Shown piece after piece: positions 33,001 to 39,000 of a stretch of DNA of 64,000 bases. Source of the stretch: Escherichia coli (GTDB lineage Bacteria; Pseudomonadota; Gammaproteobacteria; Enterobacterales; Enterobacteriaceae); the NCBI RefSeq assembly GCF_017348835.2, contig NZ_CP072312.1. One strand, 5' to 3'. How positions within the stretch are numbered: the stretch's first letter is position 1; each line of letters begins with the position of its first letter. The position numbers were made by a program.

Positions 33001-36000
33001 TCCGGATTTTTGCCAGGGCATCCGCCATGCTGCGGATTTCGGCCCGGGCTTCCCGGACAACTTCCCGCAGAACACCACGGTCAAACCACTGGCGGGGCGG
33101 TTCATCCGGTATACGCAGCACATCGCAGGCCAGCCCACTGGACAGGATATGTTCAAGACAATCGCTGACCAGATACATTTCCACCGCCGAAAAACGTGCG
33201 CCCCGGTTCAGGATGGCATCGAGCACCACGGGCAGGTTTTCGTCGTCCTCATCGAGCCAGCAGGGGTGATCGCTTTCCTTCACGACTAGGCGAAAGCGGC
33301 GCGTCTGGCGGGTCAGTAACGTCTGACCGGTGGTGGTCAGCGCCGCCCGGATACGCAGCGTATCTTCTGCCACCCGGCAACTGACACTGCGTACAGCATC
33401 ACGCACCGCCGCAAGTACAGCCCTGATTTCGTCTTCGGTCAGCCATTCACCGGCATACGGAAAAGACACCTGCGTTCCGTCTGCCGGAAGTACCGGCAGC
33501 GACTGCCACTGACTGCCGGACAGTACAAGTTCCGCCCCGGTTCCGGTCAGTTTGTGAATAGCGGAGGCCAGGAGCGGCGGCAGTACGCCGCCGTGACGGT
33601 TGATAAGTAACGTCGCCAGCCGGGGCGCATCCAGCAGAACATAAATGCTGATCCAGCCCGGATACTTCGGGTTCCGCTGGTCAACATCAGTCTCTTCCGG
33701 CCAGCCCTGCGCCAGCAGCAGGTCGCGGGCGTGACGACAAATCAGTGCATTCAGCGTTGTGTTTTCGTTCATGATTAATCGTTCTCCCTGTATCGCCGCC
33801 CGGAGGCGGCGATAACATCAGTCGTTTTCGTGCGTGTTGTTTTTCAGCAGGATGCGGGCCTGATTAACCACCGCCTGACGGCGGGTGACGAATTCCGGGA
33901 CGGCGAGGCCGTTATCACGGGCGGCCCATTCACGCTTCCACAATGCCTGTTCAGCGGTCTGAATCAGGGACGCCAGCAGTTCAGCAGGGACGGTCACCTG
34001 GCGGTTTTCACTCACGTTGCTGATAATCTCCATAGCCGCACCGGAAGAAATACCGGACTCAGTCCGCTGGTCTTCCGGGATGTCCTCCAGCCGCGCCAGG
34101 ACGGTCCTGATTTCATGATCGGACAGGGAAATATCCATTCCATCAGCGAGGACCTGAATCTCTTCCGGGGACCAGACAACCAGCATCAGCGGAGTGTCTC
34201 CCGGATACTGCGCTGCCAACTCCCGGCAGAGCGTTTCGCATGTTCCGTACATACTCTCTCCCCTCAATCTTTGAAGCAGGAATCCAGTTCCAGAATTTCG
34301 GTATATGCCTCCATCAAGAGGCGGTTTGCGCGAAACAGCGTCTGACGCACCAGACGTTCCGGCAGGGTGTCGGCATTAAAGCTGTACCGCTGCTCCATCT
34401 CATTCATGGTTGTACGCAGGTCGCACATGGCATTGGCCACCTCCGCCACTTCGGCGCGCAGTTTTTCGTGTCCGGCATAGTTCATTTACGCAGCCTCCGG
34501 TTCAAACCAGTTATCATTCGCGGCCCCCTGCTGCATGGCCCGTTGCACGGCGGCCAGTCGTTGCTGTCCGGCACGGTGATACTGTTCAAGCAGCTCGATA
34601 CCGATATACCGGCGTCCGGACTGAAGGGCGGCCACGCAGGTTGAGCCGCTGCCTGCAAACGGGTCCAGCACAATTGCGTTCGGATGTGTGAAGCTCTCAA
34701 TCAGTGGTTGCAGGCTGGTAACGGGCTTTTCCGTCGGGTGATGGCGGTTGCCTGAATATTTCCAGCCCAGCACGTCGGGCAATGGCTTCTGAGGCAGCGC
34801 CGGACGCCCTTTTGCCAGGATGTAAGCGCATTCGTGGCGATAGCCCACATATGCGGCCTTCGATGTGTAGGTTTTGGTAAATACCAGGTGGCCAACCACG
34901 CTGAATCCCGCATTTTTCCAGGCGGCCATAAAGCGATCGACGCGGTTCCAGCCATAGAAGCTCACCATCAGCGCATCTTTTTTCAGCACTCGGTACATTT
35001 CATTACAGGCCGGTTGCAGCCATTCATCGGTTTTATCGCCGGCGATGGTACGCCCCTGACGGTCACGGAAACCGACGAGATATGGCGGGTCGGTGAGGAT
35101 GAAATCGACAGCATTGCCCGGAAACGTGGCCATAACACGCACGCAGTCACCCTGGATAAAACGGGACATAACAGCACTCCTTCTCTTACAGAGGGCACCG
35201 GGAGGGCGCCCCTGTGGCGCCCGTTCCCCGCTGCCTGTGGGCTGTTCACCGCGTCCGGTAACGGGTCAGGCCGACCGTGGAATACCGCAGCCGTCGTCTT
35301 TTTGACGGCGAGGATATGCCGCGAAAGCGGCTTGAAGGGCGTTCATCAGAAAAGGGCGACGGGCTGGCGTACACTGTCACCAACGCCAGCCGGGAGCGGT
35401 AAAAGCGCCCGTCCCGTGCCCGGCCGGACGCGGGACACTGACCACAGGCAGCGTTCCTGCCGCGCCGCGTCAGCCGGCGCAGTAAAAAGAGGAGCCCGGC
35501 GACATCCTTTACCGGAAAAGAAACGGGCGGTTGCCCGCCCGTCTCCGTCATACTTCATCCTCCATAATGCGCCACATTGTCGACTATCCACGCCGGTCCG
35601 GTGACTTCCGGCAGCTCATCGTCATCTGTCGGGGAAGACCATTCAAGTTCCCCCCCACAGCACATCAACGAGCTCTCCACGCTCATACAACTGCCAGCCA
35701 CAGAAATCACAGCCCTGTTCGGCATACCAGTGCTCCAGTGTGCAACTGAAACGGCGGCTTAATTCTGCAATAACGTCGCTTTCTGGCTGACACCACGGCG
35801 TGTCAAAATCCACCTGAATGAAGTTGTCTCTCTGACTGCTGATATTCACCTCATACCCCACAGGCCACTTCACGCCATACTGTTCGGTATACCAGTGATA
35901 TGCAGAAGGAACACCGTTCAGAACACCACCGTTAAAGCCGTTTACTTCAACATCCAGGCGGCTGGGCATCAAAATGGGGTACCGTGGTTTCAGCTGAAGT

Positions 36001-39000
36001 CGGTGAAATTTTCGGAGCCGGTCATCGTCTTCTCCAGTAATTACCCGCTATACGCATCGATGTCGAACAGGGTCATGGTTCATCTGGAGGCGCTGGCACC
36101 GCGCGTTGAGCAGTACTCGATTGACGAGATGTTTCTCGACGTGCGAGGTATTGACAGCTGCATCGATTTCGAGGATTTCGACCAGCAGCTGCGTGAACAC
36201 GTCAGGAACGGGACTGGCCTGACTATCGGTGTCGGAATGGGGCCAACCAAAACGTTGGCAAAGTCAACACAATGGGCTTCCAAAGAGTGGCCACAGTTTG
36301 GTGGCGTGCTGGCATTAACGCCGGACAATATCCGCCGTGCGGAAAAACTGCTGTCACTGCAGCTGGCGCACGAACCCTGTATTTATCAGGAAGAACTTCA
36401 ATGTGGTTCTGGAGAGAAAGGTCCGGGAACTCAATGGAGAAAGCTGTATTTCACTGGAGGAAGAACCGCCCCCCCAAACAGCAGATAGTCTGCAGCCGGT
36501 CCTTTAGAGAGCGCGTCACGACATATGAGGCCATGCGCTAGGCCATCTGTCGGTACGCTGAGCGTGCAGCTGAAAAGCTGCGGGGCGAGTGTCAGTTCTG
36601 CAGACATATCGCCATTTTTTTGAAGACGTCACCGTTCGCAGTAAACGAACCGTATTACGGGAATGTGGCCAGTGAAAAACTGCTCATCCCCACGCAGGAT
36701 ACACGGGATATCATTGCCGCTGCCGTTAGAATTCTGGACAGGATATGGGTGGATGGCCATCGATATGCAAAAGCGGGTTGCATACTCAACGATTTCACTC
36801 CTACCGGGGTTTCGCATTTGAACCTTTTCGATGATACTCAGCCCCGGAGCAACAGTAACCAGCCGTTGAAAGTCGTGGACAGCATTAACCATTCCGGTCT
36901 GGGGAAAGTGTGGTTTGCAGGCCGAGGCATTGCGCCAGAATGGCAGATAAAGCGTGAGATGTCGTCACCGGCATACACTACCCGCTGGAACGAACTACCG
37001 GTCGCCAGACTTTGAAAAAAAGAAATTCATGGTGATTTCACTATGAAAGAATTAAAAAAAATACTTTATATTCAGTAAAATAAGCATGAAAAAAGCGTGG
37101 TGAAAATTGCAAAAAAAGGATGCCATTTGGCATCCTGATATTAACCCGGCATATCCTATTCAGGCAGTTTTCTTAGAATGTTTTTTATAGCCTCATCGAT
37201 TTCTAACTGCACCTCATTAGATATGCGGGAGAACTCATAAACAACAAGACGCTTTCTGGGGTCAGTCTTCTTTCTGGCAAATTGGTTACGATCAGAAAAC
37301 TCTTTCAACTTCTCAGTTTCCACTGTTTTTACAGGCCGGTCTGTAAGCAATTTTCCTTCAGACCTGAAGACCGCCAGGATTTTGCTTTTCTCAATTGTTG
37401 GATAGTCAGGTAAAGCCATCAGTTTTTGGCGAACTCTATCCATAAACTCTTCCACTGACATTTTTTTGTTGGTTGCCTTTTCAGACAGTTTCAACAAAAA
37501 TTGATAGTCCGACAGCGAAATATCATTGATTATCGGAAATACAGAGATCATTTCATCCGGTACTGATGCCGCCTGAAATGCGCGTGTTACTTTTGCCGGA
37601 GAGATGCTTTCAGCCTGAGCGATCTCTTCTTTTGTCATACTTGCCCCATAAGTAACTTCAAGGCGTTTTCCTAGTTCTCGGAGGCTATGCTCTCTGGCTG
37701 TCTGTATATCTTTTGCAAGTTGTCTCGCGTCGGCAATATCAATACTGTCTTTTGTAACCAGTATTTCGAATTTTACGTTGTTATAGATACAGGCAGCACG
37801 ACGACGCGTACCGTCTAATACTTCAATTCGTCCATCTACTTCCCGACCAATAGCCGGAAAAAATTGCTGAAGTTTAATCGTGCGAGTTATGTCACTAACT
37901 GACTCACGCGAAAGCATAGTCTGATCGCGTCCATTAACAGATACATCAACGAACGTTTTAGATTCTATATCTCCGCTTAATACAACCGTTTTAATGAATT
38001 TTGCTTGTTTCCCCGACTTAAGAGTAAACGTTTTGATCTCTCCGTCACCTTCAAGCATGCGAGCGAACTCTGAATTGCTATTGCCGAGAACTCGCCCTCG
38101 AGCTAAAACCTTTTTCATTTGGATGCTCCCCGAATGTATTCAATGCGGTCAAAAACGGCTTTAGTAAATCGTTCCGCTTCGGTACGAGCTTTTTTCAATG
38201 CCTCTGCACTTCCTGGATACGAAACAGGGTTAGCACTGATGATAGTGTCAAAAGATTCACCACATCGTTCGAACCCGTCCAGTCTCGGAAGCGATGAGTC
38301 AAGAATATTACTCGCATACACTTCACGAGCCAGGCTATAGGAAGTTTCGTGATCGCGCTTACTGGTCATTTTGGACATAAACCCTATGCTCGCACTCAGG
38401 CGGGGCTCAACGCCTTCTTCTTCCAAACGTTCTAGCATTTCAGGTAAACGAGTCAAATATTTGAGAGTTGAATGGAAATCAACTTGCGCCGGGGGAGTAG
38501 GGGTGAGAAGTAAATCACTCGCAGCCAGGCCATTGAGAAGAAATGGATCAAGATGAGGGCCAGTATCAATAAAAACAAAATCATAATCATCAGCGATACG
38601 GTCAATGATGGTTTTCCTGAGTACTTCAGAAGGCTTAAAACCAGGAAGGTGTTCAGCAACCAAAGACTCCCATTGGCTTGCTACGAAGCCGTCATCAATA
38701 GAAGCAGGGATGACATCAACGCCAGGAATCATAGTGGGTCGGATAACCGCTTCTCGCAGTGTTTCAGCATCGAGATTATTTAGCATTGCTTGGGCGGCAG
38801 TTTCAAGGACTGTACCAATACTATGGGTATGGTCCAAAAACATAGTGCTGGACGCCTGCGGGTCAAGGTCGATCACAAGGATACGAAGGTCATGACGCAG
38901 CAAATCCGGATGTACTCGTAGTGCATGCGCCAGCGTTACTGTACTGACGGTTTTTGAAACCCCACCTTTCAAGTTGACGACAAAAATTACGTAAGGTTCT

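Follow-up and report, generated by a model that had tools for sequence, protein, structure and literature searches.

With a probability that we put at roughly 95%, the locus at positions 35958-37015 (+ strand) of the window, the 64,000-nucleotide stretch of Escherichia coli DNA analyzed here, is a decaying pseudogene that keeps the 3′ 89% of a plasmid gene for the catalytic subunit of DNA polymerase V, derived from the SRAP-umuD-umuC (samAB-like) clade of IncF plasmids. The host replicon is a pO103-like E. coli (EHEC) virulence plasmid. The presence of a umuC-like gene, proposed in a first-pass annotation, is borne out: an intact relative of 423 amino acids matches in three reading frames (tblastn, E = 2.5e-174), corresponding to codons 46-423 of a 423-codon umuC/samB-type ancestor of the Y family, and the Pfam domains IMS (E = 1.1e-17), IMS_C (E = 2e-07) and DUF4113 (E = 1.7e-17) are all recognized. 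The frame-repaired conceptual translation scores 583.6 bits against NCBIfam model NF002955 (UmuC; cutoff 431 bits), and by this curated family threshold the remnant can be assigned to the UmuC subfamily of Y-family DNA polymerases. Its status as a pseudogene is already known from public annotation, in which RefSeq/PGAP flags both a frameshift and an internal stop.

The start of homology and the lesions were called from an alignment (A1) with intact and sister umuC alleles. All four kinds of lesion described earlier are present in this alignment, with some revision of their extent. The 5′ truncation stands, and homology begins at 35958/35959, which is codon 46, so that 45 N-terminal codons are missing, rather than at 35975 with about 60 codons lost. 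The internal deletion is also real, with a size of 80 bp (codons 182-208, about 27 codons, instead of about 55); its scar lies at 36355-36363 (columns 631-710 of A1), and it alone already shifts the reading frame. The segment lost is a helix-hairpin-helix ("VDEIWGVGRRISKKL..."), and it was flanked by a 9-bp direct repeat, CACTGCAGC, of which one copy remains, as seen against the Salmonella Schwarzengrund and pSA20044414.1 rows. Where one frameshift had been noted there are two single-base ones: a 1-nt deletion at codon 52 (35978-35979; ATG GGN GTA to ATGGGGTA) gives a −1 shift after 35978, and a run of seven C at 36469-36475, six in the sister allele, gives a +1 shift. The in-frame TAG exists and occupies 36539-36541 (previously placed at 36538-36540), replacing the CAG codon of Gln266. 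Altogether the remnant has three reading-frame changes and one nonsense codon, and umuC cannot be read here as one uninterrupted frame of about 420 codons from a start codon.

The catalytic core is likewise incomplete. From the roles of these residues in E. coli UmuC, we take the core to consist of Asp6, Asp101 and Glu102 plus Tyr11, with Asp6 as a catalytic residue and Tyr11 as the steric gate. The SIDEMF segment (D101/E102) is still present in the remnant; the MFALADVNSFY segment, which holds D6 and Y11 in intact relatives, falls within the 45 deleted codons. Furthermore, the first position of the motif QLNLF in intact relatives, presumably the beta-clamp binding motif of UmuC, is changed to H (Q358H). 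Several independent criteria thus support the reading, made on sequence grounds, that the gene product would be non-functional, and the gene would remain dead even with the C-run corrected.

The remnant also stands without a partner and without expression signals. In intact relatives the umuD stop codon is at the umuC ATG. Here no S24 peptidase gene of the umuD/mucA/impA/samA type lies just upstream, and a remnant of a DUF1281 gene replaces the entire upstream region. The best umuD match in the window is noise (tblastn, E = 0.43), and no homologue of umuD, impA, dinI or SRAP was found in the window or in complete pO103 (tblastn; E ≤ 0.01 for samA-like/impA). Queries with samA-like, impA, impC, SRAP, samB-like and impB proteins returned the remnant as the sole match in both, and the missing 5′ part of umuC was not found elsewhere in either, so the earlier statement that the gene lacks a umuD partner holds for the window and for complete pO103. 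The promoters of umuDC-type operons are LexA-repressed in characterized systems. No promoter of its own precedes the remnant, and no sigma-70-like site was detected in 35400-37015, either upstream of or inside it. Antisense and out-of-frame ORFs across the remnant have no Pfam match, and no Rfam family threshold was reached, the sole weak match lying outside the remnant (37065-37138; 16.9 bits against a gathering score of 200, which is noise). The earlier description of a clearly dead module agrees with the absence of a start codon and promoter, the lost N-terminus, the frame changes, the stop codon, the lack of umuD and the PGAP classification, and the remnant appears to do nothing.

One might still suppose that a C-terminal UmuC fragment is made from 36620-37015 and modulates host Pol V, e.g., by titrating a partner. 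This segment is open for 131 codons (131 aa) and covers the end of IMS_C together with DUF4113 (E = 1.7e-17), the domain from which PGAP takes the name of the locus, and a smaller DUF4113 remnant persists in another plasmid (L009). However, the start codon would be TTG with no recognizable ribosome-binding site, no promoter-like site lies upstream of the segment, the presumed clamp-binding motif carries Q358H, and the 84 nt left in L009 are too short for a domain. Neutrality and the adjoining parS-like site explain the persistence of the segment more simply, and we consider such a residual function very unlikely.

Sequencing or assembly error would be another explanation, under which the cell would carry an intact umuC and the frameshifts, the stop codon and the deletion would all be spurious. 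Two lesions do lie in or near homopolymers (the C-run at 36469-36475 and GGGG at 35976-35979), and the C-run has 6, 7 or 9 C among near-identical plasmids, as homopolymer miscalls would give. Against this, at least 80% of 35600-37200 is covered in 48 PLSDB records, of which 46 reach ≥99% identity, and the scar recurs at ≥99% identity in 61 E. coli genomes of RefSeq; pO103 (NC_013354.1) is among the carriers and is 100% identical over 35600-37200. Three more carriers aligned base by base (L017-L019) have all lesions in common, including the TAG, and differ in C-run length. The junction, the TAG and both the −1 and the 80-bp deletion are the same in records from many laboratories and hosts, and the intact homologue that resequencing might have revealed at these coordinates did not appear in dozens of independently sequenced plasmids. 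Since the same scar recurs in these plasmids and genomes, with intact homologues at hand for comparison, the pseudogene is genuine, and artefact is refuted for every lesion except the exact C-run length, leaving a negligible chance for error as the overall explanation. A contingency switch turning the polymerase on and off through the poly-C tract is equally negligible: although the tract varies among otherwise near-identical plasmids, no length restores the gene, the 5′ truncation, 80-bp deletion, −1 deletion and TAG being fixed in the carriers examined, and a second C-run, in the DUF1281 remnant, varies likewise, pointing to unconstrained slippage.

The breakpoint of the truncated umuC is well defined. 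Head-to-head with it lies the DUF1281 remnant (35555-35972, − strand), which lacks about 166 of 300 codons, carries one additional C in the run at 35650-35656 relative to intact genes, retains DUF1281 profile positions 143-177 plus DUF1281_C in Pfam, and is itself a pseudogene in PGAP. In a three-way comparison with intact DUF1281 (plasmids L005 and L006) and with intact and sister umuC (pSA20044414.1 and S. Schwarzengrund), the fusion of DUF1281 to umuC codon 46 falls in an 11-nt microhomology at 35958-35968 (GCGGCTGGGCA in umuC, GCGGGTGGGCA in DUF1281; 10 of 11 nt identical), with the crossover within GCGG (35958-35961); megablast matches to DUF1281 stop at 35968. Among the matches listed, a chimeric query of the DUF1281 5′ half with a samA-type umuD/umuC 5′ part retrieved impCAB-type neighbors only (81-84% identity), a DUF1281-SRAP query retrieved no record with both parts adjacent, and no plasmid has intact DUF1281 adjoining SRAP/umuD of the samAB-like clade. 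As that arrangement was not found among the matches listed, they do not establish an origin of the junction by one deletion within a single ancestor, and it may equally have arisen by recombination between two plasmids.

These observations are consistent with the following history. In intact relatives the samAB-like operon closes the distal end of the leading region, and it would ancestrally have stood there. In the pO103-like lineage, illegitimate, microhomology-mediated joining of mid-DUF1281 to umuC codon 46 most probably eliminated 45 N-terminal umuC codons together with umuD and the promoter region. The silenced remainder would also have taken on the 80-bp deletion (between the 9-bp repeats), the 1-nt deletion and the CAG-to-TAG change, which are common to all carriers examined, and the newest change is the C homopolymer length, still variable between carriers; beyond this, the order of the lesions can only be suggested. 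The remnant probably persists because it is neutral, and a host with umuDC on its chromosome may have tolerated the loss. By a crude count, raw N/S on the window lineage is 0.58, against 0.19-0.48 in intact lineages, so relaxed constraint is weakly visible; the ratio is only 0.58, which suggests that most of the divergence predates inactivation.

The remnant lies, as the first-pass annotation had placed it, between the leading region and parAB. Upstream is a leading-region methylase gene (34486-35169), preceded further upstream by antirestriction and DUF1380 genes, and beyond the remnant are parB and parA of P1 type (37156-39371). This position agrees with the report that leading-region islands terminate at umu-like operons (Samuel et al. 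2024, PMC11541004). A putative parS (37028-37112) begins about 20 bp beyond the stop codon of umuC, and in it inverted heptamers ATTTCAC (37035-37041) and GTGAAAA (37101-37107), separated by an A/T-rich spacer, are conserved in six plasmids with the same ParB type. The site resembles what we take to be box A of P1 parS; judged from motif conservation and this resemblance, it is probably the centromere of the adjacent parAB. The region has no blastn match in phage genomes, and TCGCCA (37001-37006) was rejected as a P1 box-B-like element in the umuC 3′ end, since it is not conserved in intact relatives. The parS-like site may represent the right-hand limit of tolerated deletions. Elsewhere on the same plasmid, traD, traG and traH are pseudogenes, traJ is shortened and a leading-region DUF932 gene is frameshifted; the carrier is a heavily decayed, non-conjugative EHEC virulence plasmid.

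Related plasmids lost the Pol V module by independent routes. Three routes of inactivation end near the same place: the codon-46 fusion, a separate DUF1281::umuC fusion in NZ_CP147609.1 that leaves the last 84 nt of umuC only, and a truncation on the side of tyrosine-recombinase genes in APEC/Salmonella plasmids. One reading, which we regard as unlikely, would be that loss at the boundary of leading region and partition locus is recurrent in E. coli IncF virulence plasmids and favored instead of neutral. If true, the parS-like centromere would set the right-hand limit of every deletion, and it would follow either that a second mutator polymerase on the plasmid is selected against or that recombination has a hotspot near umuC codons 42-46. 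The remnant matters little in itself, being one more pseudogene already flagged in RefSeq. The DUF1281::umuC junction and the 80-bp deletion nevertheless offer a clean lineage marker for pO103-type plasmids, and the locus illustrates how short-homology recombination may remodel this boundary. A comparative study of pO145 lists a plasmid "umuC" as encoding lesion-bypass polymerase V (PMC3893438). If this is the same remnant, no polymerase could be made from it, and its presence would be no ground for ascribing plasmid-borne SOS mutagenesis to the carriers.

The samAB-like module was compared in four intact plasmids, pSA20044414.1 (L004), pHD7405-NDM (L002), p9_SCLZS19 (L007) and pCFSAN000954 (L008), in which the ancestral layout reads methylase (leftward), then SRAP, umuD and umuC (rightward), then parS, parB and parA (leftward). 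The remnant has 75-87% nucleotide identity to this module over its 5′ 400 nt and 80-85% over its 3′ 650 nt, its pieces are 80-89% identical in amino acids to pSA20044414.1, and the umuC stop codon has the same position. The same parS-like site followed by P1-type parB-parA, and the same methylase side, are found in pSA20044414.1 and pCFSAN000954. Plasmids of pSLT and pSEV size match the remnant at 80.7%, and pSLT presumably carries samAB. In contrast to the intact module, the remnant lacks SRAP, umuD, the promoter and codons 1-45, it bears a stop codon and two 1-nt indels besides the 80-bp deletion, and the DUF1281 fragment takes the place of SRAP/umuD.

The impCAB operon of IncI plasmids (dinI-like impC, impA and impB; e.g., L011, L014 and the IncFIA plasmid L013) encodes the same protein family and stands, like the remnant, head-to-head with DUF1281 at the end of the leading region, in at least 1780 PLSDB records. 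Nonetheless, impB aligns with the remnant only in patches at about 70% nucleotide identity, and the proteins are 49-60% identical; the remnant is thus not an impB derivative. Consistently, blastn identity is mostly 80-91% to the four intact plasmids and S. Schwarzengrund (75-77% for the 5′ segment with L004 and L002), whereas impB of L011 reaches about 70%, which on sequence comparison places the remnant in the samAB-like IncF clade and not in the impCAB clade.

The closest allele is a sister pseudogene of APEC/Salmonella IncFIB-IncFIC plasmids (pAPEC2908, L010; S. Schwarzengrund, L003), 91% identical over the 5′ 418 nt and 84% in the 3′ part, with derived residues in common; a closer intact allele was not found, and among intact relatives the sister allele reaches 89.7% identity at best. 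Its 5′ break lies about 10 nt from the breakpoint of the remnant, and it also lacks umuD and adjoins P1-type parBA. It is truncated beside three tyrosine-recombinase genes, whereas the remnant is beside DUF1281, and it has its own TAG at the Q158 codon and none of the indels of the remnant; the two decayed independently. Chromosomal E. coli umuDC (Pol V) matches the same NF002955 model as the remnant, and its umuD has about 68% nucleotide identity, over a partial match, to umuD of the plasmid clade. Matches resembling umuD, at 5391 chromosomal places, extend across nearly all E. coli genomes and, unlike the remnant, the chromosomal operon is intact in essentially all of them, which would make the plasmid copy redundant.

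A broken umuC/samB-type Y-family (Pol V) polymerase gene lies at 35958-37015 on the plus strand, as expected from the umuC-like gene proposed in the first-pass annotation. Three plus-strand frames match, by tblastn, the intact 423-aa polymerase of the Salmonella plasmid pSA20044414.1 (residues 48-184, 209-245, and 243-423; joint E = 2.5e-174), Pfam assigns the first piece to IMS and the last to IMS_C plus DUF4113, and against the NCBIfam UmuC subfamily model NF002955 (cutoff 431) the conceptual translation, once frame-repaired, reaches 583.6 bits. The nucleotide identity of the remnant is 75-91% to IncF, Salmonella, and Enterobacter umuC alleles, but only ~70% to IncI impB. 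The remnant is thus a samB-like gene and is not derived from impB. Its match to Salmonella plasmids with the sizes of pSLT and pSEV is 80.7%; pSLT is known as a carrier of samAB.

The lesions were read from an alignment with two intact genes (pSA20044414.1 and pHD7405-NDM) and the closest allele (S. Schwarzengrund). Homology begins at 35958/35959, corresponding to codon 46, and the 45 codons lost at the 5' end read MFALADVNSFY... in intact relatives, including Asp6 and Tyr11, which are a catalytic residue and the steric gate of E. coli UmuC, respectively. A 1-nt deletion follows position 35978 (codon 52). An 80-bp deletion (codons 182-208, scar at 36355-36363) removed the helix-hairpin-helix segment VDEIWGVGRR...L and by itself shifts the reading frame. 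In the intact genes, CACTGCAGC occurs at both ends of this stretch with a spacing of exactly 80 bp, and a single copy is left at 36355-36363, the signature of a deletion by slippage or short homology. Downstream, the run at 36469-36475 has seven C, compared with six in the sister allele, and codon 266 is a nonsense mutation (CAG to TAG, 36539-36541). About 25 amino-acid positions invariant in all three comparison sequences are altered in the window alone, among them Q358H, which falls in the beta-clamp-binding motif of UmuC, QLNLF in the intact relatives. By a crude count of lineage-specific substitutions, N/S is 0.58 for the window versus 0.19-0.48 for the intact lineages, which suggests that most divergence of the window allele predates inactivation. 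The first-pass annotation had recognized each kind of lesion, and its interpretation is supported, but the observation is only partly confirmed: it overestimated the 5' loss (~60 codons) and the internal deletion (~55 codons, instead of ~27), counted one frameshift without listing the 1-nt deletion, and placed the TAG one nucleotide too early (36538-36540).

These lesions are shared well beyond one assembly. In PLSDB, 48 records span 80% or more of 35600-37200 (46 at ≥99% identity), and the locus is present at ≥99% in 61 complete E. coli genomes in RefSeq, with carriers isolated from human, cattle, deer, pig, and dog. In a base-by-base alignment, three slightly divergent carriers (L017-L019) have the junction, the 1-nt deletion, the 80-bp deletion, and the TAG in common with the window; the differences are limited to the length of the C-run (9, 6, and 6 C) and a handful of substitutions. 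A sequencing or assembly artefact is rejected by this recurrence, and what independent records carry is the damaged locus rather than an intact homologue. RefSeq annotates it as a pseudogene ("frameshifted; internal stop"). The gene is dead, as first proposed, and is an ordinary pseudogene already flagged by public annotation. Because C-run length varies while the other lesions are constant, the C-run change is the youngest lesion, still polymorphic, with the others fixed earlier. Both 7-C runs, 35650-35656 and 36469-36475, vary among near-identical plasmids (6, 7, or 9 C), consistent with slippage free of constraint in dead DNA or, possibly, with some miscalled homopolymers in other assemblies.

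Directly to the left, in a head-to-head fusion, is the 3' part of a DUF1281 (Api92-like) gene (35555-35972, minus strand; Pfam DUF1281 profile positions 143-177 and DUF1281_C), which has lost ~166 of 300 codons and has also gained a C in the run 35650-35656. Intact DUF1281 genes (pO157 and pMB9245_1) and umuC alleles share GCGG(G/C)TGGGCA where the homologies swap (35958-35968), and megablast matches to DUF1281 stop at 35968. The junction therefore arose by illegitimate recombination at this microhomology, in which 10 of 11 nt agree. The umuC pseudogene feature of RefSeq/PGAP, named "DUF4113 domain-containing protein", maps to 35895-37015 and overshoots the true homology leftward by 63 nt, overlapping the DUF1281 pseudogene feature. 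This overshoot (within 35895-35972) is an annotation artefact of ORF extension, the open frame having been followed into DUF1281-derived sequence. The neighbouring 101-aa ORF (35246-35551, minus strand) has no Pfam or NCBIfam match.

Four plasmids of the clade (pHD7405-NDM, pSA20044414.1, p9_SCLZS19, and pCFSAN000954) retain the intact layout, in which a leading-region methylase is followed by divergently oriented genes for an SRAP peptidase, umuD, and umuC. P1-type parB and parA, in the opposite orientation, directly follow umuC in pSA20044414.1 and pCFSAN000954; in the other two, umuC and the partition genes are separated by a RES-family gene, a pair of small ORFs, and a different parAB. The same methylase occurs in the window (34486-35169), together with the same parB (37156-38118) and parA (38115-39371) as in the former pair, placing the remnant between the leading region and parAB as previously described, and the methylase-to-parB interval holds only the small hypothetical ORF and the DUF1281 and umuC fragments. 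The reported lack of a umuD partner was borne out: samA-like UmuD, ImpA, DinI-like ImpC, and SRAP gave no tblastn match at E ≤ 0.01 in the window or the full 75.5-kb pO103. No sigma-70-like site was found upstream of or inside the remnant, none of its antisense ORFs matches Pfam, and it matches no Rfam family; the single weak Rfam match, far below threshold, is past the stop codon (37065-37138).

A second, independent DUF1281::umuC junction occurs at 3860-4610 of NZ_CP147609.1, a bloodstream E. coli plasmid, with 326 nt more DUF1281 than the window and just the last 84 nt of umuC (94.5% identity to the window allele), adjoining an almost identical ParB. Judged from the DUF1281 sequence that it keeps and the window lacks, it cannot descend from the window scar. 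An IS4/Tn5-family remnant was also observed there inserted at the equivalent of 37108-37116 and apparently flanked by a 9-bp target duplication. The closest allele (pAPEC2908 and S. Schwarzengrund) is likewise dead, with its own TAG and a truncation ~10 nt from the window breakpoint; this closeness may reflect chance (roughly 2%) or a hotspot. Abutting the sister pseudogene is a three-gene tyrosine-recombinase run (725-3930 in pAPEC2908, 705-3911 in S. Schwarzengrund); in pAPEC2908 it consists of a hypothetical ORF flanked by two tyrosine-type recombinases and resembles a recombinase-in-trio element. DUF1281 head-to-head with a umuDC-type operon is common only with the impCAB clade (at least 1780 PLSDB records, IncI and IncFIA), and among the matches listed no plasmid had DUF1281 beside SRAP/umuD of the samAB-like clade. 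Most likely, the common ancestor of the window and NZ_CP147609.1 would have had longer DUF1281 and umuC versions facing each other; separate recombination between two plasmids may instead have produced the junctions. Independently arising, recurrent loss of the plasmid umuDC module remains a lead.

The partition genes may have shaped these scars. An inverted heptamer pair (ATTTCAC, 37035-37041; GTGAAAA, 37101-37107) with an A/T-rich spacer begins ~20 bp beyond the stop codon of umuC and precedes the parB terminator hairpin (37117-37136). It is conserved in all examined plasmids with this ParB type, has no blastn match in phage genomes, and has a motif resembling P1 parS box A. The heptamers (within 37028-37136) are a probable P1-type parS. 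Rightward deletions would destroy partition, so tolerated deletions would end before this site, which could explain why the 3' end of umuC is spared in all three decay routes; a scar bounded by the putative parS remains a lead. Nearly every one of 5426 E. coli genomes has a chromosomal umuD-like match; with the host's own umuDC, the plasmid copy would be dispensable.

The window is a pO103-type EHEC virulence plasmid, 99.7-100% identical in rearranged blocks to pO103 of E. coli O103:H2 (NC_013354.1), which carries stcE, etp type II secretion genes, ehxCABD, and a RepFIB replicon; 35600-37200 is 100% identical in pO103 and ~20 other plasmids. The block breakpoints coincide with ~1.3-kb IS3-family copies (e.g., ~5746-7057, 14173-15483, and 24847-26156), which indicates that IS-mediated inversions or rearrangements separate the two plasmids. 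The pO103 transfer region is badly decayed, with traH, traG, and traD pseudogenes and traJ truncated by an IS. The leading region (~26500-35200, pO103 64646-73336) is likewise decayed, with frameshifted DUF932 and DUF1380 genes, an IS4-family transposase pseudogene, and no annotated ssb or psiB. The decayed leading region and truncated traJ make the plasmid most likely non-conjugative.

In a comparison of EHEC O145 (PMC3893438), "umuC", described as encoding a lesion-bypass polymerase, is among the genes differing between two pO145 plasmids, beside RelBE and ParAB. If that gene is the remnant found here, no polymerase can be made from the pO145 locus. According to Samuel et al. 2024 (PMC11541004), anti-defence islands of the leading region are bounded at their end by umu-like operons, which usually face the opposite way; this boundary is exactly the position of the remnant in the window.
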